Positions 2,445 through 24,666 of a stretch of DNA of 24,666 bases are shown here, in pieces. Origin of the DNA: Tubiluchus corallicola (lineage: Eukaryota; Animalia; Priapulida); contig JAQGDQ010001103.1 in the NCBI GenBank assembly GCA_030141605.1, forward strand, positions 37,935 through 62,600. Direction: 5' to 3'. Below the pieces are notes generated by a model. That model was not told where the DNA came from and did no database searches. It was given only the letters and a program-made list of their open reading frames with translations. Within the stretch, counting starts at the first letter, position 1. Each line of letters begins with the position of its first letter. The translations under genes and the position numbers were made by a program.

Positions 2445-2594
2445 GTTCTCGAGGTGAAAGCGCGGAAGAGGAAAGGACCAGAGAACCTCATCTCTTGCAT
2501 GCGCAAGTCACTAGCTAGTCATTACGGCTCGGATTCCATCGGTCTCGGAGGTGTTTTTGTGATTGAGACGGGCAAAGCTAAGATACACGTAATG
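2445..2594 (+). CDS. C11orf54: Ester hydrolase C11orf54 homolog, internal coding exon
   Basis: Acceptor ttttttcacag and donor gtcagt; 150 bp. Encodes VLEVKARKRKGPENLISCMRKSLASHYG...GLGGVFVIETGKAKIHVM. Confidence 0.93.
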
Positions 2595-3274
2595 GTCAGT
2601 ATTAGCGGTCAGTGTTAAAAATTCTGGTACAGTAATTCTCGTAATGGAGTAATAAGACTTTTCACAGTTATTCTTTACGCAGGTAAAGTATAGCGCAGCG
2701 ACGAGTTTTAACTACAAGCGTCACGTGACGTGTAAAGCAAAACCGCCTGCATCTGTTCAGTAACTTCAGTTGTTTTACGTGGTCTTTGCTTAATTTTGCA
2801 TTAGACTGTGCATAGAGTGATTTACTAGCAGGATCTTGCTTGGAAACAAGAAAAAATGAACTAGGTAAAGCTGTAGCTAGCTGTTAAAACTGTTACTATT
2901 GCAACAGCATGGAGTGTGAGGCATTGTCAAGTTTTCACTTCTTGTATAGAAAGTTTTACCTGGCATTTGACTTTACAGAGCTTCACAACATTGTTGTGTT
3001 ATTTCTATATGTGGCATGAGTAGCTTACCTGCATTCTATTGTGTTTATGGCGAAGTTTTATTCTTCCAAATAAGCAGTCTGTCAGCACATACCTTTTGAG
3101 TTCTTCATATTGTCTGGTACACTTGACCTTTGACCTTTTTACGATCATCATCAATGTTGTGAGAAGAACATAGAAGTTGTGAAAAGGTTTATTGCTCCTT
3201 TAGCACTAAGTACTGTTGAATTTTTCTACACTAGTTGCCATTAGCCATTTTGCCATTAGCATTTGCTTTTTCAG

Positions 3275-3391
3275 CCTGATTTCAGTACGGAGCCGTTGGA
3301 CAGCGACGAAGACGTGAACAACTGGTTGAAGTTCTTCGACATGTCCGCACCTCTTGTCTGTCTCACCGGTGAATGTGTGTCGCACGATCCG
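3275..3391 (+). CDS. C11orf54: Ester hydrolase C11orf54 homolog, internal coding exon
   Basis: Acceptor tttttcag and donor gtaagt; 117 bp. Encodes PDFSTEPLDSDEDVNNWLKFFDMSAPLVCL...SHDP. Confidence 0.93.
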
Positions 3392-4035
3392 GTAAGTTAT
3401 GCTATTCTAATTAGCGTTTTTGTGGATGCGCCCAGCCCAGGTAAAGAAACGGCAAAAATCAGTATTGAACTGAGCGATAGACCTGCAATTTATTAAAATA
3501 ACAGATCACGAAAAGTGCTTAAGAACGTGCTAAAGGTTATTACTATTTAGACAAAATGAAAAGTTAGATTTAAGAAGACTGAAACACGTTTTATTACTTC
3601 ATGATTCTAGAGATTTGAAACAATTCTAACCAATTTAAACTATTAACTAATCATTAAAGTAGATGGTGACTTACATTTACTGGTGACAACTTTGGCTTGA
3701 AAATACAACTAGTGACTGTTAAATTGTAACAGAATAGACAAAGCAATGCAAGTATCACCAAACGGCATGATCAGCATAGCGGCAACAGAAAATGTAACTA
3801 CGTGTAAAAACAAGTGTGATTGATAGGTGGCGTATACTACTAAAGCTTCGGTCACATGACTAAGCCTGACTAACCTATCCACCTTTTTACTTATTACCTT
3901 GAGACTGTAGTTACCAATGAAATGGAACTGTGCTTTTACGTATAAAGATACACTATTTAGTTGTCTGTTTGGTTTACTCTGAATTCCATAACTGTGCGTT
4001 TCTTAAGAATGTTAAGCTTAAAGATGCCTTTTCAG

Positions 4036-4200
4036 GGCCTTGACCTGAGAGTGGAGCACACCCATTGTTTCAGTCGCCATGGAGACGGCGGTCATTACCA
4101 CTACGACACCACCCCGGACGTGGTCTCCTATCACGGCTACTTCAATCTTGCCGACATTCTGTACAGGATCGATCGACCGCCAAGTACGATCAAGTACTGA
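4036..4200 (+). CDS. C11orf54: Ester hydrolase C11orf54 homolog, terminal coding exon with the zinc-binding histidines
   Basis: Acceptor cttttcag. Encodes GLDLRVEHTHCFSRHGDGGHYHYDTTPD, the family signature HxH...GGHYH. TGA at 4198-4200. Confidence 0.95.
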   Translation, partial: GLDLRVEHTHCFSRHGDGGHYHYDTTPDVVSYHGYFNLADILYRIDRPPSTIKY

Positions 4201-4225
4201 CCAAGTACGCATTGGTCGTGATTAA

Positions 4226-4396
4226 CCCTTAAAAGCGTAGAAGTTGCTCAATGTCTGCTTTCTTTTCTACCTTTTTCTGCGGAAAACGTCGGAATTTACC
4301 AGTAATATTTACCATATCAAATTGTTATTGTGTAACAAATTGAAATTATATTAAAATTTCTGCTAAAATTGTTAATGTTTAACCTGTTTTTAAGGG
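4226..4396. mobile_element. piggyBac-like MITE (171 bp)
   Basis: TTAA duplication at 4222-4225 and 4397-4400 flanks 9-bp inverted termini cccttaaaa / ttttaaggg. Confidence 0.7.
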
Positions 4397-4506
4397 TTAA
4401 GGATCAATACATTTTATTGTTTTTCTCACTACTTCTTTCTCTTGCTTTTATGTATTCATCACAATCTAAAGGTGTTGGTGACATTCGACAAAAAAGTGGG
4501 TAACAG

Positions 4507-4747
4507 CAGGGATTTTACCGAAACCGAATTTTCGGTTCGGTTTGCCGACAGTTGCAGTTTCGGTCAAGTTTCGGTTTCGGTGAAATTTATCAAGTTTCAC
4601 AGCGGAAATTTCCGATAATTTTCTTCAACATTTTTCTAAAGTTTTACTAGTATTTATCCAACTTTTTTCTCCTAGATGTCAAATTCTGGTGAAAAATCTT
4701 GGCTAAAATAGTTCAAATAAAGTGAAAATTTCGTTTACATAACAGTT
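4507..4747. mobile_element. One end of a hAT-like non-autonomous element, truncated
   Basis: Starts CAGGGATTTTACCGAAACCGAA, followed by clustered ccgaa/ttcgg subterminal motifs (4518-4582). Matching end not found; right boundary approximate. Confidence 0.45.
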
Positions 4748-4763
4748 TGTGACGTGCTTTTCA

Positions 4764-5105
4764 CATCAGCGCACGCGCAGTAACCCCGCCCGTACGCGTA
4801 GTCGATCGGGACACCCACCCCCATCATATAGCGCTGGTGGCCGGTATCGCATCAGCGCACGCGCAGTAACCCCCCCGCCCGTACGCGTAGTCGATCGGTA
4901 CACCCACCCCCATCATATAGCACTGGTGGCCGGTATCGCATCAGCGCACGCGCAGTAACCCCGCTCGTACGCGTAGTCGATCGGGACACCCACCCCCATC
5001 ATATAGCGCTGGTGGCCGGTATCGCATCAGCGCATGCGCAGTAACCCCGCCCGTACTCGTAGTCGATCGGGACACCCACCCCCATCATATAGCACTGGTG
5101 CCCGG
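4764..5105. repeat. GC/CpG-rich ~86-bp tandem repeat, 4 copies
   Basis: Unit catcagcgcacgcgcagtaaccccgcccgtacgcgtagtcgatcgggacacccacccccatcatatagcgctggtggccggtatcg. Confidence 0.95.
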
Positions 5106-5119
5106 TGTCCTGATCGACA

Positions 5120-5701
5120 CCCAGCTTGCATAATTGTTTTGCAGATAACATATTAACCAAATGCTGACACTCTGCTAAATGCCAAACATCAGGCGCGGTC
5201 ACTTCTTGACCACCTATACCGCTGCTCTCCAGTAAGGAGATTAGGCAGTTGTCCGAGATTAGTTGAGGAAGTCATGATCGTTTGTGTTTTCTCTCCTCTA
5301 ACATAGTTTTCATCTATCACGTATGTGGTACCTGTATAAACCCCCATCTGTTGCATATCTAAATCACCTTGTGAAGAATACTTCTTCATACCGACATAAC
5401 CTGACTTCAGACATAACCTGGCTTCAGACGTAACCCGGCTTCACACATAACCTGGCTTCAGACGTAACCTGGCTTCAGACATAACCTGGCTTCATCCACT
5501 TAATAGGAACAGACATTACATTCTTCCAACATAGCATGAAGATCTTTGTGAGTTTTAAAACACACTTTAAACAGCTCCATGAATTTGCACCAATAATTCA
5601 GTCAGTAAGCAAACAAAGATCAATGAAATGCCCGATATTATACCTGAAAGAGCCAATCAATGCATTTTATCCATGTAATCATGATTAGCTATTCTTTCTC
5701 T
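5120..5701 (-). pseudogene. Phenuivirus/phlebovirus-like glycoprotein EVE, 3' part: Gn membrane anchor, cytoplasmic tail and probable Gc signal peptide
   Basis: Manual translation gives RERIANHDYMDKMH*LALSGIISGISLIFVCLL (TM), a frameshift, CLKCVLKLTKIFMLCWK..., ORF 5189-5389, then PRLMFGI*QSVSIWLICYLQNNYAS (signal-like). It joins the 6401+ segment in frame once the LINE is removed. Confidence 0.65.
5393..5494. repeat. 17-bp minisatellite, 6 copies, inside the Gn-like EVE
   Basis: gacataacctggcttca x6 with minor variants. Confidence 0.95.
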
Positions 5702-6398
5702 AGAATTAGAATTAGTTTATTCACCGTAATGATTTCACATAACATAAGTAGGCAACGATAACTATATAACTAACGAAATTAAAATTTAACTACAAAACAA
5801 AAAAATCATATACAGAGGGCAAATTTCTTTACCGAATCAACAAAAATATCGCGTTTTAATGTAGGGGCACAATAGTTCTTCACTCATACGTCTTAACACA
5901 TCTCCAACAATATTTCATTAACGACGTTAAATTTGGGGAGTGCATAAGGTTACAAATGCTAGAAAAGTTCAACTCAGAATGTTCAATTCGTAAATTTTCT
6001 GTCACCGGACATCTCAATAAGACGTGGGCTTCTGTTTGAACCTCTTCCCCACATGTACATAATCTGTCTTCTCTCGGTATTCTGGACCAACGTCCGGTTT
6101 CTATCATGAGATTAGGCGATGACGTCCTAAGTCTGGTAAATTCAACTCTTTGGTAGTCCGGGATTTCAGATTCCATATCATTATAGACTTTATGAGGTTC
6201 TAAACATGGGTTGAGTTCTAAAAATGTCAAAAGAACTTTTGCCGGAACATCGTCTTTGATATCAGTAGAAAGGATTTTTTGGAGGTACTTGTATCCTTTG
6301 GTATTGTTAGTTTTACATAAATTCCAAACAAACATAAATGGATCGTCCACCATACCAGTTCTTTGACTTATCAGTTTCAATAGCAAATTTCTTTGTGA
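5702..6398 (-). mobile_element. 5'-truncated non-LTR retrotransposon (CR1/L2-group-like): ORF2 C-terminus and 3' UTR
   Basis: ORF 5880-6428 carries RLRTSSPNLMIETGRW...RLCTC...EAHVLLRCP, the C-terminal motif typical of these LINE ORF2s. The minus-strand 3' end has AATAAA then a short (attcta)n tail. CT dinucleotide at both junctions (5700-5701, 6399-6400). Confidence 0.85.
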
Positions 6399-6400
6399 CT

Positions 6401-7215
6401 GCATAAGAAGCAGGTGACATAAGCACATGTATCAAAATCATTACAAGATGCATCAAAAATAATGGGTTCACTATTCTTAGCCTTATGCAACTTAGCTTTC
6501 ACATGGCCTGCAGTTAAGAACATAGATGGTTGGAACATTACAGGAACTATCTGAGATGTTATTGCTCCATGTATGTAACCTACTTTTCTTACACACCTCA
6601 TACATTCCACCCTCAAAAGTTGGAGCAAAAATCTTAACACCGTTGGATAAGCACGAAACTGAACATCTATCACATTTAGCATCTGTTTTATCATCTTCTG
6701 ATAATAATTTTCTTCCAACTAAAACATTAGTTGTACCAATGCAGTGAGGAACTATCATTTTCGTTCCTGTCTTCATAGTCATAACACTGGTGCTGCATTT
6801 TAATGCACAATAACAGTTAGATCCAGAAGTTCCAGGAGGATATAATATAAATTGCCAACACAGCCACCTGCTTTGCAAACACTATCAGAGCATAATCCAC
6901 AACATAAGAAATTAATCAGATCTTTTGTGTCTTGTTTCATGATTATTGTGTGTTCACTTGAGAACCATATAACATCTTGTCCAGTTATATATAACAGTTT
7001 TTAATATCTATTAATTTCATCATCACAATCTTTCAATTTCTTACCAGCAACTGAGCATAAACCTGGATCATTCCATAAGTTCTTTAAATCATCATAATTA
7101 TCCCGACATGTCATGTCTTGATAATATCTAGTAGATAAAAAGTGACTTCATTTTTTTACAAGCTACCAACCAAGGCAATTGGCAAAGATGTAGAAATCTT
7201 CACAATTGCTCTTCA
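6401..7215 (-). pseudogene. Phenuivirus/phlebovirus-like Gn (G1) ectodomain EVE with stops and frameshifts
   Basis: Ordered motifs YYQDMTC, GLCSVAGKKLKDCD, NFLC, CVGN, NCYCALKCSTSVMTMKTGTKMIVPHCIGTTNVLVGRKL, CDRCSVSCLSNGV, CNDFDTCAYVTCFLC. These parallel recalled RVFV Gn motifs: LQDLFC, GVCEVGVQALKKCD, SFVC, CTGD, NAYC...PLCVGYERVVVKREL, CxxCxxxCxxxG, Cx5Cx4Cx2C. Confidence 0.8.
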
Positions 7216-8714
7216 GACTTCCTTCCAGAACGCTCTTGCATTTCTATGTCTTCTTCTTTTCCCAGCTTCCTATTCTTCAGCTTCATCATTATTAGCCTGT
7301 ACAAAATCCATAGAATCAATGCATTAACTTCAATAAACGTAGCTACTGTCATCAGCCACAGCCAGTCCTTGGCAGAGGAGTAATCTTCATACCAATGAAG
7401 AGGTTCTATCTCGTGGTGGGAGATCAGGAGGGCGTGGGTCTTGTTTATTAAAGCGTTTATTTCATCCGTGTAGCTGGTTAGGTTGTGACTCTCTAGCTTT
7501 GGAATCCAGCTTTCGATTCGATGGAGAGTGTCACTACAACGGAGGAAATAGCCCGGTAAGTGATACTCTTTAACTTTTTTGCATGTCAAAACCAAGCTAG
7601 AGTTCTTAGGTATTGTTCTTTCTGATACTCCTGTGTAAGTGGACACAGTTCTTAAGGAGTAACTAGCTTGTTTTTGAACCAACCAACCGCCCATGAGTGT
7701 TACAACGCCCCAGCTTTCAGGTGACCTCTCATATTTTACAGATTTATCAAAAGGCTGTGTCTCCAGGTAATTTGGGCAAATAACGACATTAAGATCCTGA
7801 CATGTTCCAGGAGGGATGATCTTAATATCACTGACGCCTAAAATCATACTAAAAGGATTCCCATGGATTACCCAGGTCCCTCCCTTAACTACAGGAACAT
7901 TCCTTGTTTTGACATGTACCTTTCCTGGCGCTTGGACAATTTCTCTTACGTTGACCAACATCCATAATGTCTTTGGCTCGGATTTAATCACGATGGCTCG
8001 ACTAGCACCATAGGATAGAGGGATACTATGGCTAGAATTTGACATAAGGTGATGGAATTGAGTAGGACTGATTAAAAGGGGGTCTATTTTAGATGATGTA
8101 ATGGATTTTAATCCATGTCCATATCGAATCGAGTTAAGGTAATCGTGAAGGCTTGTCATATCGTTGGAATGCACCACCAATAGCTTTTGAACATTTGCAT
8201 CTATCCTACCCACAAACCTTTCTAGTTTTTCAAGGTTATGTCCCAGAATTCTTATTTCTTTGTTTGCTACTTCTATCTCATGTTTTATAACTCCTTGATT
8301 GTTTCTCAGTTCGCTCATCTTTCTATTAAGTGAATTGATCTCAGCTCTATTTGTAGCTCCTAACGCTAGGGCAGCTGTAGCCTCTGCCATTGCTGCGCCA
8401 GATACAATTAGACCCAAGAATCTTTTTTTCCGGTTGCCGTCAGTCGAGGAGTTGTCTAGGTTTGGATCTTTGAAGAGGTCATAATGGATATCCCAGGCGT
8501 AAGTCATATCAACCTTTACCACTTTATATGACTGTGTCACCTGATATCCGATGGGTTTGGGGTCGGTGATTATAATTCCGTAAGAGGCTAATGCATCCTG
8601 ATGTTTATAAATAATCTCTTGGGATAGCTGCGGAATAATGCTATTCACGCTTACTATGGTTCCGTGTGCAACGGTTAAGAGAGAAGAAATGGTTATGATA
8701 GTGTAGTAATCCAT
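7200..8714 (-). CDS. Open class I viral fusion glycoprotein (paramyxo/pneumovirus F-like; also resembles errantivirus/baculovirus F-type env), ~504 aa
   Basis: ATG at 8714 and signal peptide MDYYTIITISSLLTVAHG. Furin site RKKR followed by hydrophobic fusion peptide FLGLIVSGAAMAEATAALALG. Long heptad repeat, IDPLLISPTQF motif, CQDLNVVIC, HR2-like segment with N-glycan sequons, Trp-rich pre-TM, TM and basic tail. Intronless. Confidence 0.88.
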   Translation of the reverse strand: MDYYTIITISSLLTVAHGTIVSVNSIIPQLSQEIIYKHQDALASYGIIITDPKPIGYQVTQSYKVVKVDMTYAWDIHYDLFKDPNLDNSSTDGNRKKRFLGLIVSGAAMAEATAALALGATNRAEINSLNRKMSELRNNQGVIKHEIEVANKEIRILGHNLEKLERFVGRIDANVQKLLVVHSNDMTSLHDYLNSIRYGHGLKSITSSKIDPLLISPTQFHHLMSNSSHSIPLSYGASRAIVIKSEPKTLWMLVNVREIVQAPGKVHVKTRNVPVVKGGTWVIHGNPFSMILGVSDIKIIPPGTCQDLNVVICPNYLETQPFDKSVKYERSPESWGVVTLMGGWLVQKQASYSLRTVSTYTGVSERTIPKNSSLVLTCKKVKEYHLPGYFLRCSDTLHRIESWIPKLESHNLTSYTDEINALINKTHALLISHHEIEPLHWYEDYSSAKDWLWLMTVATFIEVNALILWILYRLIMMKLKNRKLGKEEDIEMQERSGRKSEEQL

Positions 8715-9003
8715 TTTGACTTCCACATCGCTTTGTCATCGCTTTACCACATGTGCAATTGCCATACGTGTAGATCTGATTTGATACATCACATTTCTCT
8801 ACATACAATCAGGGTTCTGTTAGATCTATGGCAACTAATGATCCATAGCAACTCTTAGGTTCACAGTGGTAAGCGATGGGATCTTGGGGCTTAACCGAAC
8901 AATGCTTTAACAAGGCTCTTCTTAGATTCTCAGTCTCATTATACATGTGTCTGATTGAGAGACATGCAACAGCATGAATCAAGATTATCAACACTTGAAA
9001 CAT
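8641..9003 (-). pseudogene. Small secreted Cys-rich viral-like protein (~120 codons) with one in-frame TGA, overlapping the start of the F-like gene
   Basis: Signal peptide MFQVLIILIHAVAC and NET sequon. After TGA (8809-8811) the frame continues LYVEKCDVSNQIYTYGNCTCGKAMTKRCG... to TAG at 8641-8643. Confidence 0.55.
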
Positions 9004-9005
9004 CT

Positions 9006-9167
9006 TCACTGTAATAGTATCTCAGTGTTTGCAGGCATCTTTGTGTGCGTTCTTCTTGTTTGTGTTCTATCGCAAAATATGCCACATAACGCACATTTTA
9101 ATTCTCTACGAACTAGCCAAATGTCAGTGTGCAGTTTCATTTGTGTTGTTGTGGCAATACTTTTGTG
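9006..9167 (-). other. Probable 3' remnant of an upstream viral ORF
   Basis: Open frame ...MKLHTDIWLVRRELKCALCGIFCDRT...EILLQ* whose TGA lies 2 nt before the ATG at 9003. Confidence 0.35.
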
Positions 9168-9589
9168 CTAATGGAGATTAATTAGTTAATGAATTCCCGA
9201 CTACGAGAGCTTCGGTCGAAGCTGTAACGATGAATCCCAGGTCGACCTTGATCCACGAAATACGCGCTGTGAAGTAGATCTTTATCTCCCTAGTTTTCTA
9301 GCACGGCTCTGCAGTAAGCCTTTTCAGTGTGATGATGTTCTGTGCCTGGCTGAAAATATATATTTATATAATGAACGGTAGTTAAATGTAGACTAATAAC
9401 AAGATTCGCTAGAAATACTAATGTTTAGCACGCCTCTGCAATAAACCTATATTCTTATCTCATTACACGTGTGACTAATGATGACTTATCTCGTTTGTTT
9501 GCTCGGATAACAGTAATTCCATTTGGTAGCTGCAGGCGTGACCAGTTTAAGAATACAATGTTAAGCAGTTGTTAACAGTTTCAGATGAT

Positions 9590-10840
9590 TTAAGATGTTA
9601 AAACTATGTGCTTTTCTTGCTCCCATGTTACTTTCGCCATTGTTATAACAGCCCAATTTTCCATTTGTTCCGTTGCCGCCAATGTCCATGGTAGTTCAAC
9701 AGGGTATAGGAATCTCATGTGATTGGCTGTGGCCCAATTTGAAATAACACGTCACCTTTCAACTTCCTCCAAATATGGGGCTTGCCCATCCCAATGTTGA
9801 GTAATATCTCTCGGCGCGTTATATTCTTGTAAGTACCACTGCCAACGACAGTCCCTCGGCCCAGGTCTAACAGGTGTTCCAGTAAAGCCCTCTGCCCTTT
9901 TAGTGTCCATCGTGTATATCTTGATACCTCTAGCCGGTTTAACTGGCTGTGTTCCTCTATACAGAGAATAAGGTCTTCCAAGGACACTGCCTGGTTCAAC
10001 TGTTACGGGTTTCTCTAGAGCATCCTCCATCTCTTTAGCAGAATACGGACTGTTCGGATCTCTAAAGAGAACCAAAGCATTCAGTCCGATATTCAAAGCT
10101 CTTGTATCTATTATAGTGTGATCATCGCCCGAAGTAAAGTACGATATAGGATTTAGCCTAATACCTATACTCCACTTCCAGCGGTAATCAACTACCGTGC
10201 CCAGAACACATCGCCATATACCCTGGAAGCTTTCCACTCCGATTGCGTACAATTCACATCCTTTTCGAACCACTGACTCACCGCTATCGGCTGTTAGTAG
10301 GTTTTCCTGCATTTCATCTAAAATGAAATGCTTCTCCACCTACTCTTCCAACCACTTCTACCACCGTCTCCCCAGGCTTCCTATCACGGACTACATTATC
10401 CAAAACCTGTTTGATTGACTGTGACTTGAAGTGGTTGGCCATTTCCAGCAAAAATTGGCGTGCAATCAGAGGGGCTGATAGAACAACTTGGTCCATATCC
10501 ATTCCTTTCTGTATCATGGCGTGGGTTTGTTCCATCTGCTCCGAAAAGCCACTCTTTGGGTTGGATGTCTCGGCCCCCACTACTCCAAAGTCTATGGCTA
10601 AACCAGCCACCCCGATTATCATAGCAACTATTCCAACTCTCCGATACCCCATCATAAAGGTGATGTATCCAAGAGCGACAATAGCCACATACGATATCCA
10701 TTCTGACACATTGAGTAACCTAGACAATCTGCTGCCAATAGCTGTAAGCCCATCCATCGCTGCATGGCCTATATTGGAAAAGAATCCACCGGTGTGGCGC
10801 TGCACAACGCCCAAACCTTTGTCCGTCCATTTGCCAGCCT
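9590..10840 (-). pseudogene. Flavivirus-like polyprotein EVE: E stem-anchor, signalase site and NS1-like region (frameshift near 10320-10340, premature stop at 9752)
   Basis: GGFFSNIGHAA amphipathic stem, two TM helices with a short basic loop (EWISYVAIVALGYITFMMGYRRVGIVAMIIGVAGL), and VVGA/E cleavage at 10572/10571. Compare recalled YFV GGFFTSVGKG...SWITKV...LGVGA/D. Downstream KGC..C..G and LYRGTQPV weakly resemble NS1 GC..KCG.G and YQRGTHPF. Confidence 0.6.
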
Positions 10841-13800
10841 TCTGGGAACATTTCTGTCGATTTTTTTTGCCTAATGCATGGTCTCCTTGGTACATCAGAC
10901 AGATGCACGTACAAACCTTATTCCACACCACACCAACGAAATAAAAAGATTTGGTTATTTTTGAGTCTTCTGGGTCTTCTGAATTGAAAATTGCCATTAT
11001 AGCCTGGCATAAAACAATCACAAAATGGCTCTTTAAGTTGTCAGAACAAAACCTGTCATTTTCAATAAACTCTGGGAACATTCCTGTTGCTTTTTTGCAT
11101 AATGCATGGTCTCCTTCATACATCAGACAGATGCAAGTACAAACCTTATTCCACATCTGGAGATTTGTAATAGTCTCCACGGTACGTAAGATTGATGCAA
11201 ATGCAAACTTTATTCCATTTCCGGGGATTTGTAATAGTCTCCATGGTGCGTAAGATTGATGCAACTGCAAACGTTCTTCCACATCCGGAGCTTTGTAATA
11301 GCCTCCACGGTACATAAGATTGATGATGCAAGTGCAAACCTTATTCCACATCTGGAGATTTGTAATTGTCTCCATGGTACGTAAGATTAATGCAAATGCA
11401 AACCTTATTCCACATCTGGAGATTTGTATTAGTCTCCATGGTACATAAGCTTGATGAAAATGCAAACCTTACTCTACATCCAGAGATTTGCAATCCCTAG
11501 AGGTTTACCTGGTATTTCTAAAACAAGAGACATGTCTAGTGAAATATCCGGAGATTTGTAATAGTCTCCACGGTACGTAAGATTGATGCAAATTCAAGCC
11601 TTATTCCACATCCGGAGATTGTAATAGTCTCTGTTGTACATCAGACGGATGCATGTACAAACCTTATTCCACACCACACCAACGAAATTAAAAGATTTGG
11701 TTATTTTTGAGTCTTCCGAGTCTTCTGAGTTGAAAATTGCATTTATAGCCAAGCATAAAACAATCACAAAATGGCTCTTGAAGTTGTCAGAACAAAACCT
11801 GTCATTTTCAATAAACTCTGGGAACATTCCTGTTGCTTTTTTGCATAATGCATGGTCTCCTTCATACATCAGACAGATGCAAGTACAAACCTTATTCCAC
11901 ATCTGGAGATTTGTAATAGTCTCCATGGTACGTAAGATTGATGCAAATGCAAACTTTATTCCATTTCCGGGGATTTGTAATAGTCTCCATGGTGCGTAAG
12001 ATTGATGCAAATGCAAACCTTACTCTACATCCAGAGATTTGCAATCCCTAGAGGTTTACCTGGTATTTCTAAAACAGGAGACATGTCTAGTGAAATATCC
12101 GGAGATTTGTAATAGTCTCCACGGTACGTAAGATTTGTGCACGTACAAACCTTATTCCACACCACACCAACAAAATAAAAAGATTTGATTATTTTTGAGT
12201 CTTCCGAATCTTCTGAGTTTAAAATTGCATTTATAGCCTGGCATAAAACAATCACAAAATGGCTCTTGAAGTTGTCAGAACAAAACCTGTCATTTTCAAT
12301 AAACTCTGGGAACATTCCTGTTGCGTTTTTGCATAATGCATGGTCTCCTTCATACATCAGACAGATGCAAGTGCAAACCTTATTCCACATCTGGAGATTT
12401 GTAATAGTCTCCATGGTACGTAAGATTGATGCAAATGCAAACGTTCTTCCACATCCGGAGCTTTGTAATAGCCTCCACGGTACATAAGATTGATGATGCA
12501 AGTGCAAACCTTATTCCACATCTGGAGATTTGTAATTGTCTCCATGGTACGTAAGATTAATGCAAATGCAAACCTTATTCCACATCTGGAGATTTGTATT
12601 AGTCTCCATGGTACATAAGATTGATGAAAATGCAAACCTTACTCTACATCCAGAGATTTGCAATCCCTAGAGGTTTACCTGGTATTTCTAAAACAAGAGA
12701 CATGTCTAGTGAAATATCCGGAGATTTGTAATAGTCTCCACGGTACGTAAGATTGATGCAAATTCAAGCCTTATTCCACATCCGGAGATTGTAATAGTCT
12801 CTGTTGTACATCAGACGGATGCATGTACAAACCTTATTCCACACCACACCAACGAAATTAAAAGATTTGGTTATTTTTGAGTCTTCCGAGTCTTCTGAGT
12901 TGAAAATTGCATTTATAGCCAGGCATAAAACAATCACAAAATGGCTCTTTAAGTTGTCAGAACAAAACCTGTCATTTTCAATAAACTCTGGGAACATTCC
13001 TGTTGCTTTTTTGCATAATGCATGGTCTCCTTCATACATCAGACAGATGCAAGTACAAACCTTATTCCACATCTGGAGATTTGTAATAGTCTCCACGGTA
13101 CGTAAGATTGATGCAAATGCAAACTTTATTCCATTTCCGGGGATTTGTAATAGTCTCCATGGTGCGTAAGATTGATGCAAATGCAAACCTTACTCTACAT
13201 CCAGAGATTTGCAATCCCTAGAGGTTTACCTGGTATTTCTAAAACAGGAGACATGTCTAGTGAAATATCCGGAGATTTGTAATAGTCTCCACGGTACGTA
13301 AGATTTGTGCACGTACAAACCTTATTCCACACCACACCAACAAAATAAAAAGATTTGATTATTTTCGAGTCTTCCGAATCTTCTGAGTTTAAAATTGCAT
13401 TTATAGCCTGGCATAAAACAATCACAAAATGGCTCTTGAAGTTGTCAGAACAAAACCTGTCATTTTCAATAAACTCTGGGAACATTCCTGTTGCGTTTTT
13501 GCATAATGCATGGTCTCCTTCATACATCAGACAGATGCAAGTGCAAACCTTATTCCACATCTGGAGATTTGTAATAGTCTCCATGGTACGTAAGATTGAT
13601 GCAAATGCAAACGTTCTTCCACATCCGGAGCTTTGTAATAGCCTCCACGGTACATAAGATTGATGATGCAAGTGCAAACCTTATTCCACATCTGGAGATT
13701 TGTAATTGTCTCCATGGTACGCAAGATTGATGCAAATGCAAACCTTATTCCACATCTAGAGATTTGTATTAGTCTCCCTGGTACGTAAGATTAATGCAAA

Positions 13801-16800
13801 TGCAAACTTTATTCCACATCTGGAGATTTGTATTAGTCTCCATGGTACATAAGATTGATGCAAATGCAAACCTTACTCTACATTCAGAGATTTGCAATCC
13901 CTAGAGGTTTACCTGGTATTTCTAAAACAAGAGACATGTCTAGTGAAATATCCGGAGATTTGTAATAGTCTCCACGGTACGTAAGATTGATGCAAATTCA
14001 AGCCTTATTCCACATCCGGAGATTGTAATAGTCTCTGTTGTACATCAGACGGATGCATGTACAAACCTTATTCCACACCACACCAACGAAATTAAAAGAT
14101 TTGGTTATTTTTGAGTCTTCCGAGTCTTCTGAGTTGAAAATTGCATTTATAGCCAAGCATAAAACAATCACAAAATGGCTCTTGAAGTTGTCAGAACAAA
14201 ACCTGTCATTTTCAATAAACTCTGGGAACATTTCTGTCGATTTTTTTTGCCTAATGCATGGTCTCCTTGGTACATCAGACAGATGCACGTACAAACCTTA
14301 TTCCACACCACACCAACGAAATAAAAAGATTTGGTTATTTTTGAGTCTTCCGAGTTTTCTGAGTTGAAAATTGCCATTATAGCCAGGCATAAAACAATCA
14401 CAAAATGGCTCTTTAAGTTGTCAGAACAAAACCTGTCATTTTCAATAAACTCTGGGAACATTCCTGTTGCGTTTTTGCATAATGCATTTTCTCCTTGGTA
14501 CATCAGACAGATGCACGTACAAACCTTATTCCACACCACCAACGAAATTAAAAGATTTGGTTATTTTTGAGTCTTCCGAGTCTTCTGAGTTGAAAATTGC
14601 ATTTATAGCCAGGCATAAAACAATCACAAAATGGCTCTTGAAGTTGTCAGAACAAAACCTGTCATTTTCAATAAACTCTGGGAACATTCCTGTCGCTTTT
14701 TGGCCTAATGCATGGTCTCCTTGGTACATCAGATGGATGTAAGTGCAAACCTTATTCCAATCCGGAGATTTGTAATAGTCTCCATGGTACATCAGACAGA
14801 TGCACGTACAAACCTTATTCCACAGCACACCAACGAAATAAAAAGATTTGGTTATTTTTGAGTCTTCCGAGTCTTCTGAGTTGAAAATTGCCATTATAGC
14901 CAGGCATAAAACAATCACAACATGGCTTTTTAAGTTGTCAGAACAAAACCTGTCATTTTCAATAAACTCTGGGAACATTCCTGTCGCTTTTGTGCCTAAT
15001 GCATGGTCCTTGGTACATCAGATGGATGCAAATGCAAACCTTATTCCACATTCGGAGATTTTTAATAGTCTCCATGGTACGTAAGATTGATGCAAATGCA
15101 AACTTTATTCCACTTCCGGAGATTTGTAATAGCCTCCATGGTACGTTAGATTGATGCAAATTCAAACCTTATTCCACATCCGGAGCTTTGTAGTAGCCTC
15201 CACGGCACATAAGATTGATGATGCAAGTGCAAACCTTGTTCCACATCCGGAGATTTGTAATCCCTAGAGGTTCACCTGGTACTTCTAAAACAGGAGACAT
15301 CTAATAAAATCTCCAGAGATTTGTGATAGTCTCCGTGGTACATCAGATTTATGCACGTACAAACCTTATTCCACACCACACCAACAAAATAAAAAGATTT
15401 GATTATTTTTGAGTCTTCCGAATCTTCTGAGTTTAAAATTGCATTTATAGCCTGGCATAAAACAATCACAAAATGGCTCCTTAAGTTGTCAGAACAAAAC
15501 CTGTCATTTTCAATAAACTCTGGGAACATTCCTGTTGCTTTTTTGCGTAATGCATGGTCTCCTTCATACATCAGACAGATGCAAGTGCAAACCTTATTCC
15601 ACATCTGGAGATTTGTAATAGTCTCCATGGTACGTAAGATTGATGCAAATGCAAACGTTCTTCCACATCCGGAGCTTTGTAATAGCCTCCACGGTACATA
15701 AGATTGATGATGCAAGTGCAAACCTTATTCCACATCTGGAGATTTGTATTAGTCTCCATGGTACATAACATTGATGCAAATGCAAACCTTACTCTACATC
15801 CAGAGATTTGCAATCCCTAGAGGTTTACCTGGTATTTCTAAAACAAGAGACATGTCTAGTGAAATATCCGGAGATTTGTAATAGTCTCCACGGTACGTAA
15901 GATTGATGCAAATGCAAGCCTTATTCCACATCCGGAGATTGTAATAGTCTCTGTTGTACATCAGACGGATGCACGTACAAACCTTATTCCGCACCACACC
16001 AACGAAATAAAAAGATTTGGTTATTTTTGAGTCTTCCGAGTCTTCTGAGTTGAAAATTGCCATTATAGCCAGGCATAAAACAATCACAAAATGGCTCTTT
16101 AAGTTGTCAGAACAAAACCTGTCATTTTCAATAAACTCTGGGAACATTCCTGTTGCTTTTTTGCATAATGCATGGTCTCCTTCATACATCAGACAGATGC
16201 AAGTACAAACCTTATTCCACATCTGGAGATTTGTAATAGTCTCCATGGTACGTAAGATTGATGCAAATGCAAACTTTATTCCATTTCCGGGGATTTGTAA
16301 TAGTCTCCATGGTGCGTAAGATTGATGCAAATGCAAACCTTACTCTACATCCAGAGATTTGCAATCCCTAGAGGTTTACCTGGTATTTCTAAAACAGGAG
16401 ACATGTCTAGTGAAATATCCGGAGATTTGTAATAGTCTCCACGGTACGTAAGATTGATGCAAATGCAAGCCTTATTCCACATCCGGAGATTGTAATAGTC
16501 TCTGTTGTACATCAGACGGATGCACGTACAAACCTTATTCCACACCACACCAACGAAATTAAAAGATTTGGTTATTTTTGAGTCTTCCGAGTCTTCTGAG
16601 TTGAAAATTGCATTTATAACCAGGCATAAAACAATCACAAAATGGCTCTTGAAGTTGTCAGAACAAAACCTGTCATTTTCAATAAACTCTGGGAACATTC
16701 CTGTCGCTTTTTTGCCTAATGCATGGTCTCCTTGGTACATCAGATGGATGTAAGTGCAAACCTTATTCCAATCCGGAGATTTGTAATAGTCTCCATGGTA

Positions 16801-19800
16801 CATCAGACAGATGCACGTACAAACCTTATTCCACACCACACCAACGAAATAAAAAGATTTGGTTATTTTTGAGTCTTCCGAGTCTTCTGAGTTGAAAATT
16901 GCCATTATAGCCAGGCATAAAACAATCACAAAATGGCTCTTTAAGTTGTCAGAACAAAACCTGTCATTTTCAATAAACTCTGGGAACATTCCTGTTGCGT
17001 TTTTGCATAATGCATTTTCTCCTTGGTACATCAGACAGATGCACGTACAAACCTTATTCCACACCACCAACGAAATTAAAAGATTTGGTTATTTTTGAGT
17101 CTTCCGAGTCTTCTGAGTTGAAAATTGCATTTATAGCCAGGCATAAAACAATCACAAAATGGCTCTTGAAGTTGTCAGAACAAAACCTGTCATTTTCAAT
17201 AAACTCTGGGAACATTCCTGTCGCTTTTTGGCCTAATGCATGGTCTCCTTGGTACATCAGATGGATGTAAGTGCAAACCTTATTCCAATCCGGAGATTTG
17301 TAATAGTCTCCATGGTACATCAGACAGATGCACGTACAAACCTTATTCCACAGCACACCAACGAAATAAAAAGATTTGGTTATTTTTGAGTCTTCCGAGT
17401 CTTCTGAGTTGAAAATTGCCATTATAGCCAGGCATAAAACAATCACAACATGGCTTTTTAAGTTGTCAGAACAAAACCTGTCATTTTCAATAAACTCTGG
17501 GAACATTCCTGTCGCTTTTGTGCCTAATGCATGGTCCTTGGTACATCAGATGGATGCAAATGCAAACCTTATTCCACATTCGGAGATTTTTAATAGTCTC
17601 CATGGTACGTAAGATTGATGCAAATGCAAACTTTATTCCACTTCCGGAGATTTGTAATAGCCTCCATGGTACGTTAGATTGATGCAAATTCAAACCTTAT
17701 TCCACATCCGGAGCTTTGTAGTAGCCTCCACGGCACATAAGATTGATGATGCAAGTGCAAACCTTGTTCCACATCCGGAGATTTGTAATCCCTAGAGGTT
17801 CACCTGGTACTTCTAAAACAGGAGACATCTAATAAAATCTCCAGAGATTTGTGATAGTCTCCGTGGTACATCAGATTTATGCACGTACAAACCTTATTCC
17901 ACACCACACCAACAAAATAAAAAGATTTGATTATTTTTGAGTCTTCCGAATCTTCTGAGTTTAAAATTGCATTTATAGCCTGGCATAAAACAATCACAAA
18001 ATGGCTCCTTAAGTTGTCAGAACAAAACCTGTCATTTTCAATAAACTCTGGGAACATTCCTGTTGCTTTTTTGCGTAATGCATGGTCTCCTTCATACATC
18101 AGACAGATGCAAGTGCAAACCTTATTCCACATCTGGAGATTTGTAATAGTCTCCATGGTACGTAAGATTGATGCAAATGCAAACATTCTTCCACATCCGG
18201 AGCTTTGTAATAGCCTCCACGGTACATAAGATTGATGATGCAAGTGCAAACCTTATTCCACATCTGGAGATTTGTATTAGTCTCCATGGTACATAACATT
18301 GATGCAAATGCAAACCTTACTCTACATCCAGAGATTTGCAATCCCTAGAGGTTTACCTGGTATTTCTAAAACAAGAGACATGTCTAGTGAAATATCCGGA
18401 GATTTGTAATAGTCTCCACGGTACGTAAGATTGATGCAAATGCAAGCCTTATTCCACATCCGGAGATTGTAATAGTCTCTGTTGTACATCAGACGGATGC
18501 ACGTACAAACCTTATTCCGCACCACACCAACGAAATAAAAAGATTTGGTTATTTTTGAGTCTTCCGAGTCTTCTGAGTTGAAAATTGCCATTATAGCCAG
18601 GCATAAAACAATCACAAAATGGCTCTTTAAGTTGTCAGAACAAAACCTGTCATTTTCAATAAACTCTGGGAACATTCCTGTTGCTTTTTTGCATAATGCA
18701 TGGTCTCCTTCATACATCAGACAGATGCAAGTACAAACCTTATTCCACATCTGGAGATTTGTAATAGTCTCCATGGTACGTAAGATTGATGCAAATGCAA
18801 ACTTTATTCCATTTCCGGGGATTTGTAATAGTCTCCATGGTGCGTAAGATTGATGCAAATGCAAACCTTACTCTACATCCAGAGATTTGCAATCCCTAGA
18901 GGTTTACCTGGTATTTCTAAAACAGGAGACATGTCTAGTGAAATATCCGGAGATTTGTAATAGTCTCCACGGTACGCAAGATTGATGCAAATGCAAGCCT
19001 TATTCCACATCCGGAGATTGTAATAGTGTCTGTTGTACATCAGACGGATGCACGTACAAACCGTATTCCACACCACACCAACGAAATTAAAAGATTTGGT
19101 TATTTTTGAGTCTTCCGAGTCTTCTGAGTTGAAAATTGCATTTATAACCAGGCATTAAACAATCACAAAATGGCTCTTGAAGTTGTCAGAACAAAACCTG
19201 TCATTTTCAATAAACTCTGGGAACATTCCTGTCGCTTTTTGGCCTAATGCATGGTCTCCTTGGTACATCAGATGGATGTAAGTGCAAACCTTATTCCAAT
19301 CCGGAGATTTGTAATAGTCTCCATGGTACATCAGACAGATGCACGTACAAACCTTATTCCACAGCACACCAACGAAATAAAAAGATTTGGTTATTTTTGA
19401 GTCTTCCGAGTCTTCTGAGTTGAAAATTGCCATTATAGCCAGGCATAAAACAATCACAACATGGCTTTTTAAGTTGTCAGAACAAAACCTGTCATTTTCA
19501 ATAAACTCTGGGAACATTCCTGTCGCTTTTGTGCCTAATGCATGGTCTCCTTGGTACATCAGATGGATGCAAATGCAAACCTTATTCCACATTCGGAGAT
19601 TTTTAATAGTCTCCATGGTACGTAAGATTGATGCAAATGCAAACTTTATTCCACTTCCGGAGATTTGTAATAGCCTCCATGGTACGTTAGATTGATGCAA
19701 ATTCAAACCTTATTCCACATCCGGAGCTTTGTAGTAGCCTCCACGGCACATAAGATTGATGATGCAAGTGCAAACCTTATTCCACATCCGGAGATTTGTA

Positions 19801-21946
19801 ATCCCTAGAGGTTCACCTGGTACTTCTAAAACAGGAGACGTCTAATAAAATCTCCAGAGATTTGTGATAGTCTCCGTGGTACATCAGATTTATGCATGTA
19901 CAAACCTTATTCCACACCACACCAACGAAATTAAAAGATTTGGTTATTTTTGAGTCTTCCGAGTCTTCTGAGTTGAAAATTGCATTTATAACCAGGCATT
20001 AAACAATCACAAAATGGCTCTTGAAGTTGTCAGAACAAAACCTGTCATTTTCAATAAACTCTGGGAACATTCCTGTCGCTTTTTTGCGTAATGCATGGTC
20101 TCCTTCATACATCAGACAGATGCAAGTGCAAACCTTATTCCACATCTGGAGATTTGTAATAGTCTCCATGGTACGTAAGATTAATGCAAATGCAAACGTT
20201 CTTCCACATCCGGAGCTTTGTAATAGCCTCCACGGTACATAAGATTGATGATGCAAGTGCAAACCTTATTCCACATCTGGAGATTTGTATTAGTCTCCAT
20301 GGTACATAACATTGATGCAAATGCAAACCTTACTCTACATCCAGAGATTTGCAATCCCTAGAGGTTTACCTGGTATTTCTAAAACAAGAGACATGTCTAG
20401 TGAAATATCCGGAGATTTGTAATAGTCTCCACGGTACGTAAGATTGATGCAAATTCAAGCCTTATTCCACATCCGGAGATTGTAATAGTCTCTGTTGTAC
20501 ATCAGACGGATGCATGTACAAACCTTATTCCACACCACACCAACGAAATTAAAAGATTTGGTTATTTTTGAGTCTTCCGAGTCTTCTGAGTTGAAAATTG
20601 CATTTATAGCCAGGCATAAAACAATCACAAAATGGCTCTTGAAGTTGTCAGAACAAAACCTGTCATTTTCAATAAACTCTGGGAACATTCCTGTCACTTT
20701 TGTGCCTAATGCATGGTCTCCTTGGTACATCAGATGGATGCAAATGCAAACCTTATTCCACATTCGGAGATTTTTAATAGTCTCCACGGTACGTAAGATT
20801 GATGCAAATGCAAACTTTATTCCACATCCGGAGCTTTGTAATAGCCTCCATGGTACGTTAGATTGATGCAAATTCAAACCTTATTCCACATCCGGCGCTT
20901 TGTAGTAGTCTCCACGGCACATAAGATTGATGATGCAAGTGCAAACCTTATTCCACATCTGGAGATTTGTAATTGTCTCCATGGTACGCAAGATTGATGC
21001 AAATGCAAACCTTGCTCTACATCCAGAGATTTGTAATCCCTAGAGGTTTAACTGGTATTTCTAAAACAGGAGACATGTCTAGTGAAATATCCGGAGATTT
21101 GTAATAGTCTCCACGGTACGTAAGATTGATGCAAATGCAAACCTTATTCCACATCCGGAGATTGTAATAGTCTCCATGGTACATCAGACAGATGCACGTA
21201 CAAACCTTATTCCACACCACACCAACGAAATAAAAAGATTTGGTTATTTTTGAGTCTTCTGAGTCTTCTGAGTTGAAAATTGCATTTATACCCTTTCATA
21301 AAACAATCACAAAATGACCCTTGAAGTTTTCAGAACAAAACCTGTCATTTTCAATAAACTCTGGGAACATTCCTGTCGCTTTTTTGCCTAATGCATGGTC
21401 TCCTTGGTACATCAGATGGATGCAAATGCAAACCTTATTCCATATCCGGAGAGGTGTAAAAGTCTCCATGGTACATCAGACAGATGCACGTACAAACCTT
21501 ATTCCACACCACACCAACAAAATAAAAAGATTTGGTTATTTTTGAGTCTTCCGAGTCTTCTGAGTTGAAAATTGCATTTATAGCCTGGCATAAAACAATC
21601 ACAAAATGGCTCTTTAAGTTTTCAGAACAAAACCTGTCATTTTCAATAAACTCTGGGCACATTCCTGTCGCTTTTTTGCCTAATGCATGGTCTCCTTGGT
21701 ACATCAGATGGATGCAAATGCAAACCTTATTCCATATCCGGAGAGGTGTAATAGTCTCCTTGGTACATCAGACAGATACACGTACAAACCTTATTCCACA
21801 TCCGGAGATTTGTAATAGTCACCACGGTACGTAAGATTGATGCAAATACAAACCTTACTCTACACCCAGAGAATTGTAATCCCTAGAGGCTTACCTGGCA
21901 TTTCTAAACAGGAGATATGTCTAGTGAAATATCTGGAGATTTGTAA
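10841..21946. repeat. ~11.1-kb complex satellite with 64-, ~68- and ~229-bp monomers and higher-order repeats
   Basis: Core 64-mer tccggagatttgtaatagtctccatggtacgtaagattgatgcaaatgcaaaccttattccaca (starts 11156, 11220, 11284). 68-bp variant at 11479-11546. Long unit at 14041, 14271, 14499. Near-identical ORFs recur at offsets of 1170 and 2528 bp. Confidence 0.97.
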
Positions 21947-21990
21947 ATATTGTATTTCTAAATATAACAATATAGTAGCAATGCACTCAC

Positions 21991-22192
21991 TCTGGCCGAC
22001 TAAGTCTACGTTTGCAAATTCGACCAACATCAAACATGCCCCCCCCCCGTGAAACCTAGGAGCGACAATAGCAGCTATAAGAGCTTTTCCTTTTGATGTT
22101 GCCGCTCTTATCGTAGCCGGCATGCCAGCATTGTTCAATTTGTCCTATTCAGCATGTTTCCTTCTCTATCACATTCGTTAAAGTAGAAGCAC
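21991..22192 (-). pseudogene. Decayed exon encoding an EGF-like domain
   Basis: Minus-strand acceptor tttttttcgtttcag and donor gtgagt. Translation C*IGQIEQCWHAG...SYSCYCR, then a frameshift to PRFHGGGAC, resembles the EGF pattern C..G...YxCxCxxGFxGxxC. Contains stops. Confidence 0.5.
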
Positions 22193-22261
22193 CTGAAACG
22201 AAAAAAATAAACACATTTCAACTTTCAGACATAAATTTGTATTGTTGTAATTGCTTAATCT

Positions 22262-22673
22262 TTATTCACACGTAATTTGTGCAGTATCGGTATCGGTAAA
22301 GTCTGAAATGTGCAGCCGTTGCAACTTTAACCATTTGGTTTGTTTATATGAGGTACTTCCATTAGCAAAATCTCGGAACCTCAGTAATGCACAATATAAT
22401 AAATTGCAGCCACTCGAACAACTTTTGACAACAAAAATGATAGTTTAATGGTGCTCATTCATTCTGAATACCAATGTGTGCCGATTCATTGAGTTTTGAC
22501 TTTCTGTATCACTGGAACGCTCAGTAATCCATGATGCAGTAAAGTCATCTGACTCACATTTCTGCTGTTAACAACTTGGATATTTGTTCTTTTATCTGAA
22601 TTCTATTTTCTCACACCTTTCTTCAATACCAGGAGTAAAATTAATAGTCTTGTTTGTATAGTGGTAGTACTTA
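22262..22673 (-). pseudogene. Decayed intronless ORF remnant of unknown function, cut off by the LTR
   Basis: One frame reads KYYHYTNKTINFTPG...CESDDFTASWITE...SCSSGCNLLYC...QITCE* with three internal stops. The final TAA is part of AATAAA. Confidence 0.3.
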
Positions 22674-23157
22674 TGAAGGTGACAGTAGCTGTTTATTGGC
22701 GCGAGGTGATGACAAAGCTATAAGATCTGGATTAATGACGACTAACACGTTTATTTCATAATATCATATTATATAAGAGTAAACATATAGCTATGCCAAG
22801 CCCCTGACCTGTCCAGCCTCCTTTCCTGAGATCCTAACCTGATCTGATCTCACTAGCTGACTTCTCCGAATTCCTGGCTTCCTGCTTGGCGTCAGGCTGA
22901 TGGCACACGCACGGGGAAAATGGGCATTGCACTGGCGCCAGACTGACTGTCCAGAATGGCTACTTCCATATTCGGGATTCTTAGTGGAGAGGCCATCACG
23001 TGACTGCTGCACCTTAATCTCGTGTTCAGCAGTCTGGCTTCCTAGGCGTCCTTTCTAGATATGTAACATATTTAATTATCAAACCACTAATCATATAACA
23101 TCTTTAATTACCGAACCATTAATCATTAGATATTTAACATTTTACCGATTCTCTTCA
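22674..23157 (-). mobile_element. 3' LTR (484 bp) of an LTR retrotransposon, probably Ty3/Gypsy
   Basis: Inverted termini TGAAG...CTTCA. Polypurine tract GAAAGGGAGGAG immediately precedes the minus-strand TG (23158-23169). Minus-strand AATAAA signals near 22692 and 22750. Confidence 0.75.
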
Positions 23158-23270
23158 CTCCTCCCTTTCTAGAAAGAAATTAATTCCCTCGGGGCTGGCA
23201 GGTTAAACTTGAACGTTAAAGTACATGGCATTAAATCTTTATCATATACATCAGCTAAAATATATGGCAT

Positions 23271-23371
23271 AAAATACATGGCATTAAATATCCATCCTAC
23301 ATTAAAATACATGACATTAAATATCCATCCTACATTAAAATACATGGCATTAAATATCCATCCTACATTAA
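23271..23371. repeat. 33-bp tandem repeat, 3 copies
   Basis: aaaatacatg(g/a)cattaaatatccatcctacatt x3, with degenerate copies upstream. Confidence 0.9.
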
Positions 23372-24158
23372 ATATTTGAAATTACTATAATCTGCTTTAC
23401 TATATCTAGGCAACCTGAATGCATTCTTGTGAGTATGGAAGCATGAGACGCGCTGCGCCCTTATATTAAGGTTACAACATTTTACAACACTGATAAGCAT
23501 GATTACGTGCGAATGTCTAGATTAAGCCTCTATATGCTGAGGTAATTATTATCTTTGCTGATTACATTATTCAAGGCTTCAGCAACATACATCATGGTTC
23601 AGTGTATATAATATCATTATGATAAACATTTTTCCTTACAATACTATAGTATCATTATGACCAAATCATCATGAGAAACATTTTTCCTTAAAATACTATA
23701 ATATCATTAATATCATTACCAAGTTAATATCCTTAATATCATTACCAATTTAATATCATTATGATGAACAGTTTTCTTTAAAATATCATTAATATCATAA
23801 TACAGTATATTATCCTAACGTTCATCATCATAGATCATAGTTTTAATCGTCATCATTATCTTTATTAGATATAGCTATACTAATAATAATTTTTTTTTGT
23901 TTTTCTTTAAGCACCCTTAGTTTAAGACACACAAGTTCACATCAATTACTTTGTATAACACATATCATGAGTTCAAAGTTCGAGGTACAAAGTTCATCAA
24001 GGTTTAAAGTATGTGTATATGCAAAGTTCATCAATGTTCAAAGTACGAGTATATTTTTAAACATATATTCAAGACACACACGAGTTCACATCTCATGAGT
24101 TCAAAATACATATCGTGAGTTCAAAATACACATCATAGGAGTTTAGAGTTCGTCAAAG

Positions 24159-24340
24159 TTCAAAATACAATCATTCAAAATACAAATCATGAATTCAAAA
24201 TACAAATGACAAATCAGAATTCAAAATACAATCATTCAAAATACAAATCATGAATTCAAAATACAGATGACAAATCGGAATTCAAAATACAATCATTCAA
24301 AATACAAATCCGTGAATTCAAAATACAAATTACAAATCAT
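24159..24340. repeat. 61-bp tandem repeat, 3 copies, built from ttcaaaataca subunits
   Basis: caaaatacaatcattc recurs at 24161, 24222 and 24283. Confidence 0.9.
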
Positions 24341-24348
24341 TCTCTACA

Positions 24349-24666
24349 TTATTCATTCTCTTCCCTTAGTTGAAAGTAAGCGTTTTGATCAGGGGTCAAT
24401 TGTGACGACTGGAGACGTGTCGCAAATGCAATTATAGCTTGATATAATGCCTGGAAATTGCTTTGAGCCGCCATTTGTGAGGTAAATCTGGAGGGCCATG
24501 TCATGGCAATCTCGTGGTTAAATCTTTGTATCCACATGGAGTGAAAAATAGCCACTTGATCAGGTCTCTCTAAGTTGAGACAACTTGAGTCATACAGTAA
24601 AATATTCGTTAATATTTCTAATTCGTTTTGAGATGGTCGGACTAACATAATAGCTTGTGCAGTTCT
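24349..24666 (-). CDS. C-terminal part of an unidentified ORF, likely the last ORF of the LTR element; 5'-partial
   Basis: The frame is open from the window edge (RTAQAIMLVRPS...) to the stop at 24349. No recognisable domain. Confidence 0.45.
   Translation of the reverse strand, partial: RTAQAIMLVRPSQNELEILTNILLYDSSCLNLERPDQVAIFHSMWIQRFNHEIAMTWPSRFTSQMAAQSNFQALYQAIIAFATRLQSSQLTPDQNAYFQLREENE

Follow-up and report, generated by a model that had tools for sequence, protein, structure and literature searches.

A fusogen-like open reading frame of F type, intact among decayed neighbours, in the genome of the priapulid Tubiluchus corallicola

The minus strand of a 24,666-nucleotide stretch of Tubiluchus corallicola DNA (the window) carries an intact open reading frame of 504 amino acids, here called the F ORF, which is likely an F-type class I fusogen of viral origin, judging from its sequence. 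Its neighbours are broken, and in public contigs the greater part of it is joined head to tail with the frame kept. The reading we prefer, to which we give about an even chance, is that the F ORF is a piece of viral sequence, either young or of separate derivation, which lies in an unstable tract of endogenous virus and is intact without host use; its intactness is likely due to young age or separate acquisition, not to use by the host. The features of the window are as follows.

2445..4200, plus strand: last three exons of a spliced host gene with DUF1907 (PF08925, E 1.7e-12, 7e-11 and 7.2e-21)
4761..5516: two small tandem arrays (86 bp x4 and 17 bp x6) on the tract's left edge
5712..6402, minus strand: high-copy LINE-like fragment that interrupts the Gn-like ORF at ~6400, recognised from depth and loose ends
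6353..7126, minus strand: remains of a phenuivirus Gn-like ORF, broken into three collinear pieces whose frames shift (PF07243 and a phlebovirus M profile)
7200..8714, minus strand: intact F-type class I fusogen-like ORF, 504 aa
7221..8626: F unit, joined head to tail in public contigs; 1406 bp plus one extra letter make 1407 bp or 469 codons, from codon 30 to 498
8641..9003, minus strand: small, Cys-rich ORF-like stretch with a signal peptide, 120 codons with one stop, its end overlapping the F start
9602..10913, minus strand: orphan ORF remnants with one frameshift and one stop, and a double hydrophobic anchor at ~10800-10575
10841..21946: higher-order tandem array of 11 kb (periods 64, 226, 291 and 488 bp), with blocks of up to 2.8 kb at 99% identity

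The F ORF runs without a stop from an ATG at 8714 to a stop codon at 7200, whereas shuffling the bases of the window 100 times produced open frames of 186 codons at most. Hydropathy peaks at residues ~3-27, 98-121 and 450-479. A predicted signal peptide (~1-18) is followed by a short F2, one furin-type cleavage site (RKKR, 95-98) abutting FLGLIVSG, a fusion peptide (~99-120), a heptad repeat (~119-200, with 75% hydrophobic a/d positions), a beta-rich head, a transmembrane segment (~452-478) and a tail; N-glycosylation sequons number five and cysteines four. Signal peptide, basic cleavage site, fusion peptide, heptad repeat and anchor thus stand in the order of PF00523 proteins, with a weak second heptad repeat (50% at best). 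The first-pass annotation had described an open frame of about 504 codons with these same elements, and the frame, hydropathy and motif scans confirmed it. An intact ORF is likewise a property of domesticated envelope genes of the syncytin/Iris type.

That annotation had also recognised the layout of paramyxovirus and pneumovirus F, a reading that profiles, ORF ranking, shuffles and the ESM Atlas all support. Pfam Fusion_gly (PF00523) matched residues 87-117 at 15.3 bits (E 0.006), under the gathering cut-off of 29.8, and the best five PDB sequence matches were henipavirus-type F proteins (E 0.05-0.09). By hhalign against 30 F proteins, residues 38-129 aligned with a probability of 88 and an E of 2.8e-6. 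The F-profile score was 15.0 bits, compared with at most 5.9 for residue shuffles and at most 8.8 for block shuffles, maxima taken over the scores reported for 363 of 500 residue shuffles and 392 of 500 block shuffles. When 219 ORFs from 34 paramyxovirus and pneumovirus reference loci, 31 of whose frames were confirmed as PF00523, were ranked against the F ORF, the top 27 were all F-type frames; 25 of these (532-574 aa) had been checked as PF00523, and the other two were longer F-type frames outside that check. The nearest ESM Atlas clusters were paramyxovirus F0 (0.97, with 222 of 256 features in common), followed by Baculo_F, gypsy and rotifer clusters, the last two at 0.92; the recognition value of 1803 lies in the weak range of a scale on which scores are strong from 2300.

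Set against PF00523 F0 proteins, the F ORF shares the signal peptide, short F2, basic cleavage site, N-terminal fusion peptide, heptad repeat, C-terminal anchor and the profile over residues 38-129, but it has four cysteines where F has a mean of 12.8, stays under the Pfam cut-off and is chromosomal. Identity to paramyxovirus and pneumovirus F is 12-18%. At this level the alignment is uncertain, and in it the F ORF keeps two of ten conserved F cysteine columns, C305 and C313 aligning with invariant F cysteines; no cysteine precedes residue 305, and since F2 has none, an F1-F2 disulfide would be absent. Homologs were found neither in 5.8 billion proteins (at E 1e-3, and at E 10 for residues 60-330) nor among 1.84 billion protein representatives, nor in viral and metagenome contigs, IMG/VR included, the last search seeing close relatives only. 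The element tables in the supplement of PMC13524379 could hold a relative. Because no relative appears among the 1.84 billion representatives and the usual F disulfide pattern is absent, the F ORF would widen the known range of class I fusogens and point to a virus or element of animals that has so far escaped sampling. It would likely work like a class I F fusogen, but should not be filed as an F of Paramyxoviridae or Pneumoviridae.

Structure prediction, which the first-pass annotation had proposed as a check, gave a mixed outcome. A single-sequence AlphaFold model was unusable (pLDDT 35), and Foldseek matches from it are meaningless. With a borrowed alignment of 30 F proteins the model reached a pLDDT of 58.9 (head strands 74-88) and matched F best (Foldseek E 6e-12; VIA Z 9.8, rmsd 8.2, 263 aligned); since the alignment is itself F, the model leans to F by construction, and the match is circular and signifies compatibility only. 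This F-biased model also matched F-like folds in many invertebrate viruses, including a bunya-like virus, lispiviruses, chuviruses and mesoniviruses. The trimer prediction scored 0.73, and one of three controls scored 0.54.

The neighbours of the F ORF are of another kind. About 75 bp past the F stop begins the Gn-like ORF, which matches PF07243 (E 4.4e-8, 32.4 bits, cut-off 25) and, in its pieces, a purpose-built phlebovirus M profile (E 7.5e-8, 2.3e-10 and 2.3e-5) made from only 10 phlebovirus-type sequences. It is collinear with the middle and C-terminal part of phlebovirus Gn, so that the downstream neighbour of the F ORF has the Gn homology of a phenuivirus M segment. Unlike phenuivirus Gn and the Gn-Gc env of Atlas virus, it is broken, split by the LINE-like fragment and without a detected Gc: no Gc-profile match was obtained at 4760-5700, and the best Gc-region score in the window was 8.4 bits against 8.6 for reversed controls (10-sequence profile). 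No homologs of the Gn-like piece were found in the sequence collections searched. The small ORF at 8641-9003 had no Pfam, PDB or homolog match, and a 195-aa upstream ORF had no homologs in the protein, viral and metagenome collections searched; the remnants at 9602..10913 are nevertheless likely viral.

It had been claimed at first that the flanking viral ORFs carry stops or frameshifts. This holds for the Gn-like ORF with its shifting frames, for the small ORF with one stop and for the remnants at 10913-9602 with a frameshift and a stop, but not for the stop-free frame at 5880-6431, which belongs to a host repeat: its depth in X1, one of the public contig sets described below, is 2600-5600, it has no Pfam match, and from its C-terminal motif we take it to be LINE-like. 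It was accordingly rejected as a viral ORF. Two other candidate readings lacked profile support. The stretch 22144-9600, considered as a flavivirus prM-E-NS1 region, matched 58 reference polyproteins best at 10796-10575, a non-significant stem-anchor match with 3.8 bits (E 0.66), while reversed controls reach 6.2; the marine flavi-like viruses of PMC9854234, a source consulted in part, carry no weight here. At 24349-24666 a minus-strand frame runs off the right window end and may be the next piece of the tract; it had no homolog match, and a profile of 31 N proteins gave no support for a phenuivirus nucleoprotein.

Repeats are plentiful around these remnants. The large array at 10841-21946 combines old 64-bp monomers (~70% alike) with recent 2.8-kb blocks (99%) and runs on from the ORF remnant; it is apparently a satellite born from coding-like sequence. 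Further short tandem arrays lie on both sides, at 1816-2425 and 23064-24339, with periods of 31, 29, 33, 26 and 61 bp. Between the upstream remnants and the small ORF, a short high-copy host repeat occupies 9253-9346, and one of the X1 contigs passes straight over 9212-9446. A comparison of the window with Rfam gave no family.

Judged by the spliced DUF1907 gene that the F tract adjoins, which we take to be C11orf54-like, the host locus is that of an animal. Public contigs come from six listed runs, four of which, from two studies, cover the stretch; X1, X3, X5 and X6 were compared. The assembly may itself have been built from X1, and depth in contigs should not be read as a number of copies. 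The unique parts of the DUF1907 gene served as the single-copy control, with a depth of 151-197 in X1. Its introns at 2742-2975 and 3054-3209 contain repeats at depths of up to 2.3 million in X1, against ~170 for unique DNA, from what must be a very abundant short element.

In the window the F unit is single. In X1, 7221-8622 has a depth of 1210-1311 and the F flanks 153-187, a ratio of 7.1-7.7; in one contig 8626 leads back into 7221 through one added letter, and the depth of this joint is 1220. X3, from the other study, has the same joint, with a unit depth of 40-62 and flanks of 9-14 (ratio 3.5-5.5); the joint depth of 164 in X3 is at odds with that unit depth. The 1407-bp unit keeps the frame, by eye without a stop at the joint, and omits both the signal peptide and the stop codon. 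Because the F flanks match the host gene in depth, and because overlapping X1 contigs span the stretch between the repeat at 6373 and 10850, the F ORF appears to be integrated in host DNA. A tandem array between the same two flanks fits the X1 depths, and a circle is also possible; the window may represent a collapsed or unamplified allele. Back-splicing was rejected by eye as the source of the joint, the run being likely DNA and the joint not matching the nearest GT/AG sites. No RNA run covering 6400-10800 is among the runs listed, which we do not take as absence, and the same applies to the X3 gap at 6410-7121.

Whether the open frame reflects selection was approached through lesions and CpG. 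By eye, seven lesions were counted over 815 codons of the neighbours. Had all the ORFs the same age and evolved neutrally, 504 intact codons would have P ~0.013 (range 0.0004-0.10), so that, for a joint arrival, the F frame is more intact than the lesions next to it lead one to expect. At codon position 3 before G, C/(C+T) was 23/63 in F and 2/53 in the Gn-like and small ORFs (p 1e-5), while in the control, position 3 before non-G, the values were 88/191 and 47/127 (p 0.13). Compared with the two upstream ORFs (p 0.11), or with the small ORF by itself (p 0.13), the contrast fell short of significance. Host CpG is not depleted (0.88-1.04), which points to an invertebrate host. Because F has kept synonymous CpGs, which selection on the protein would not protect, it is likely younger than its neighbours or from another donor; the difference may reflect donor bias and not age. 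Between the purifying selection and younger insertion first offered as causes, the CpG contrast fits a younger or separate insertion, and the one point for selection is the intactness itself (P ~0.01). X3 differs from the window at two F positions, both non-synonymous, and in the upstream ORFs three of four differences change an amino acid, which is too few for dN/dS.

These results bear directly on the suggestion of a co-opted envelope gene with which the locus was first annotated. The host might use F as a fusogen or entry-blocker from a single-copy allele, or as an in-frame poly-F repeat under selected amplification. F alone among the long ORFs is intact while its neighbours are broken, and it retains a signal peptide, a furin site, a fusion peptide and a membrane anchor. 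The stretch that is amplified falls inside the ORF and preserves its reading frame, the joint is identical in both studies, and there is a precedent in Iris, the domesticated F-type env of Drosophila (PMC1262188, consulted in part). A domesticated envelope gene is, on the other hand, expected at a stable single-copy locus, whereas X1 and X3 have raised depth and the joint; because the unit omits the signal peptide and the stop, amplified alleles would not make a normal fusogen. Tandem amplification is moreover common across the window, both F variants are non-synonymous (n=2), and the synonymous CpGs lost in the neighbours are not of a kind that protein-level selection preserves. Like Iris, the F ORF is an F-type envelope gene without pol, but it keeps its cleavage site and sits among decayed viral remnants, while Iris, as far as the consulted part of its description goes, is at least 25 million years old, expressed, endowed with orthologs and apparently without a cleavage site (PMC1262188). 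The head-to-tail unit in two studies and the CpG contrast leave co-option without positive support beyond the open frame, and we regard it as quite improbable.

Alternatively, the F ORF might be the env, an extra ORF, in a large LTR retroelement, with gag-pol either deleted or situated past the right window end and the Gn-like ORF as a second captured env. There is ample precedent in the parts of the literature consulted: F-type env is widespread in Ty3/gypsy elements across animals (PMC13524379) and occurs in rotifer LTR elements (PMC5408684), and a hookworm element, Atlas virus, has a phenuivirus-like Gn-Gc env (PMC9094657). The gypsy and rotifer clusters of the ESM Atlas and the ORF running off at 24349-24666 would fit as well. 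As described in those sources, errantivirus and rotifer env share with F a chromosomal F-like ORF, a furin site, a fusion peptide and an animal genome, a likeness of description and not of direct sequence comparison. The F tract differs in its Gn-like neighbour, its single-copy flanks and its lack of gag-pol and LTRs in the window (PMC13524379; PMC5408684). The window holds no pol-sized ORF, no LTR-like repeat pair flanking the tract and no Pfam match to reverse transcriptase or integrase in nine minus-strand frames over 4700-7230, 8700-11000 and 21700-24666, as the first-pass annotation had anticipated in stating that no pol is adjacent; viral F clusters also outrank gypsy env in the ESM Atlas. 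Since the flanks are at single-copy depth and only the internal F unit is raised, F is not part of an active, dispersed multicopy LTR family, the case named at the outset as refuting co-option. An LTR origin therefore seems quite unlikely to us.

A third alternative derives the whole tract from one unknown enveloped virus or viral RNA, with an F-type fusogen, a Gn-like protein and further membrane proteins tightly packed and integrated once, the F ORF having stayed open by chance or under some selection. The pieces all share one strand, with the small secreted ORF running into the F start and the Gn-like ORF beginning no more than ~75 bp past F. The Gn-like match ends before any Gc, as if F had taken over Gc's fusogen role; the F-like folds noted above in bunya-like and other invertebrate viruses, obtained with the F-biased model, agree with such a genome. 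Yet the synonymous CpG use of F is unlike that of its two neighbours, the window searches detected no polymerase or nucleoprotein, IMG/VR and metagenome contigs contain no such virus within reach of a search for close relatives, and an intact F has P ~0.01 under shared age and neutrality. Nor is the genome that of a paramyxovirus: in the order N-P-M-F-HN-L, F stands between M and HN/G, whereas here its neighbour is Gn-like, and tblastn of the 219 ORFs from the 34 reference loci found no similarity to paramyxovirus N, P, M, HN/G or L in the window (best E 0.048). We judge a single-virus origin unlikely. In a bolder version, which we consider very unlikely, an undescribed animal virus would pair a class I F with a Gn-like attachment protein in place of Gc, and the host would amplify F in frame such that each RKKR with its fusion peptide becomes an internal signal-anchor and many-unit, fusion-dead F ectodomains block entry of the parent virus.

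If F is instead a young or separate piece, as we prefer, the tract would have formed by reverse transcription and integration of viral RNA pieces, with all pieces on one strand as in piRNA-type endogenous-virus clusters, and would be prone to tandem duplication. The F unit would be its most recent duplication, an amplification that fits the habit of the tract because the window holds many other tandem arrays. At the locus, only the first copy of the array would carry a signal peptide and only the last a stop, and any host use would more probably be as a small-RNA template. From the single-copy form, a product behaving as known F proteins do would undergo cleavage after RKKR, form a trimer, insert the fusion peptide and fold anew into a helical bundle. 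Against this reading, the overlap of F with the small ORF and its closeness to the Gn-like ORF look like one compact genome and not separate insertions; the amplified unit lies wholly inside one intact ORF with the frame kept, which a randomly placed unit would do with ~1% chance (a post hoc figure); and intactness has P ~0.013 if all neighbours arrived together.

Each part of the tract is covered by known kinds: F-type env in retroelements, duplicated virus insertions, Gn-Gc env and domesticated F-type env. Duplicated RNA-virus insertions near retroelements and piRNA clusters are described in the consulted part of PMC6580184, with near-identical duplicates at 46% in Aedes aegypti. The tract resembles these in having virus-derived structural-gene pieces beside a non-LTR retroelement, but its F ORF is full-length and intact and its duplication is head to tail and in frame (PMC6580184). 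The apparent novelties are how extremely the sequence has diverged, that the disulfide pattern is lost, that an F adjoins a Gn-like gene and that a unit is joined head to tail in frame; our literature search, mostly without subscription papers, found no virus with F beside Gn and no in-frame amplified F element. An F directly before a Gn-like gene hints at an unusual glycoprotein pairing. If the locus is neutral, it warns against inferring domestication from an env that is intact while its neighbours have decayed, and the in-frame joint offers a cheap discriminator, by PCR or long reads, between neutral instability and selected amplification.

Some further contigs deserve mention. X5 and X6, which bear the same species label, differ from the window at many host-exon positions, and of 5520-10850 they cover only repeats or nothing, a gap not taken as absence. 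At 3304-4426, X5 (guessed to be DNA) has host exons at one depth with 59 differences in ~390 bases, much as a transcript from a divergent lineage would look. The match of one X3 contig is confined to 8254-8312, and at both ends the contig runs on unlike the window; it may be a diverged F relative, and X1 has no extra depth there. At 7460-7500 the X1 contigs break, and their summed depth is ~100-200 higher over 7300-7655, perhaps from a variant or partial copy among the repeats.
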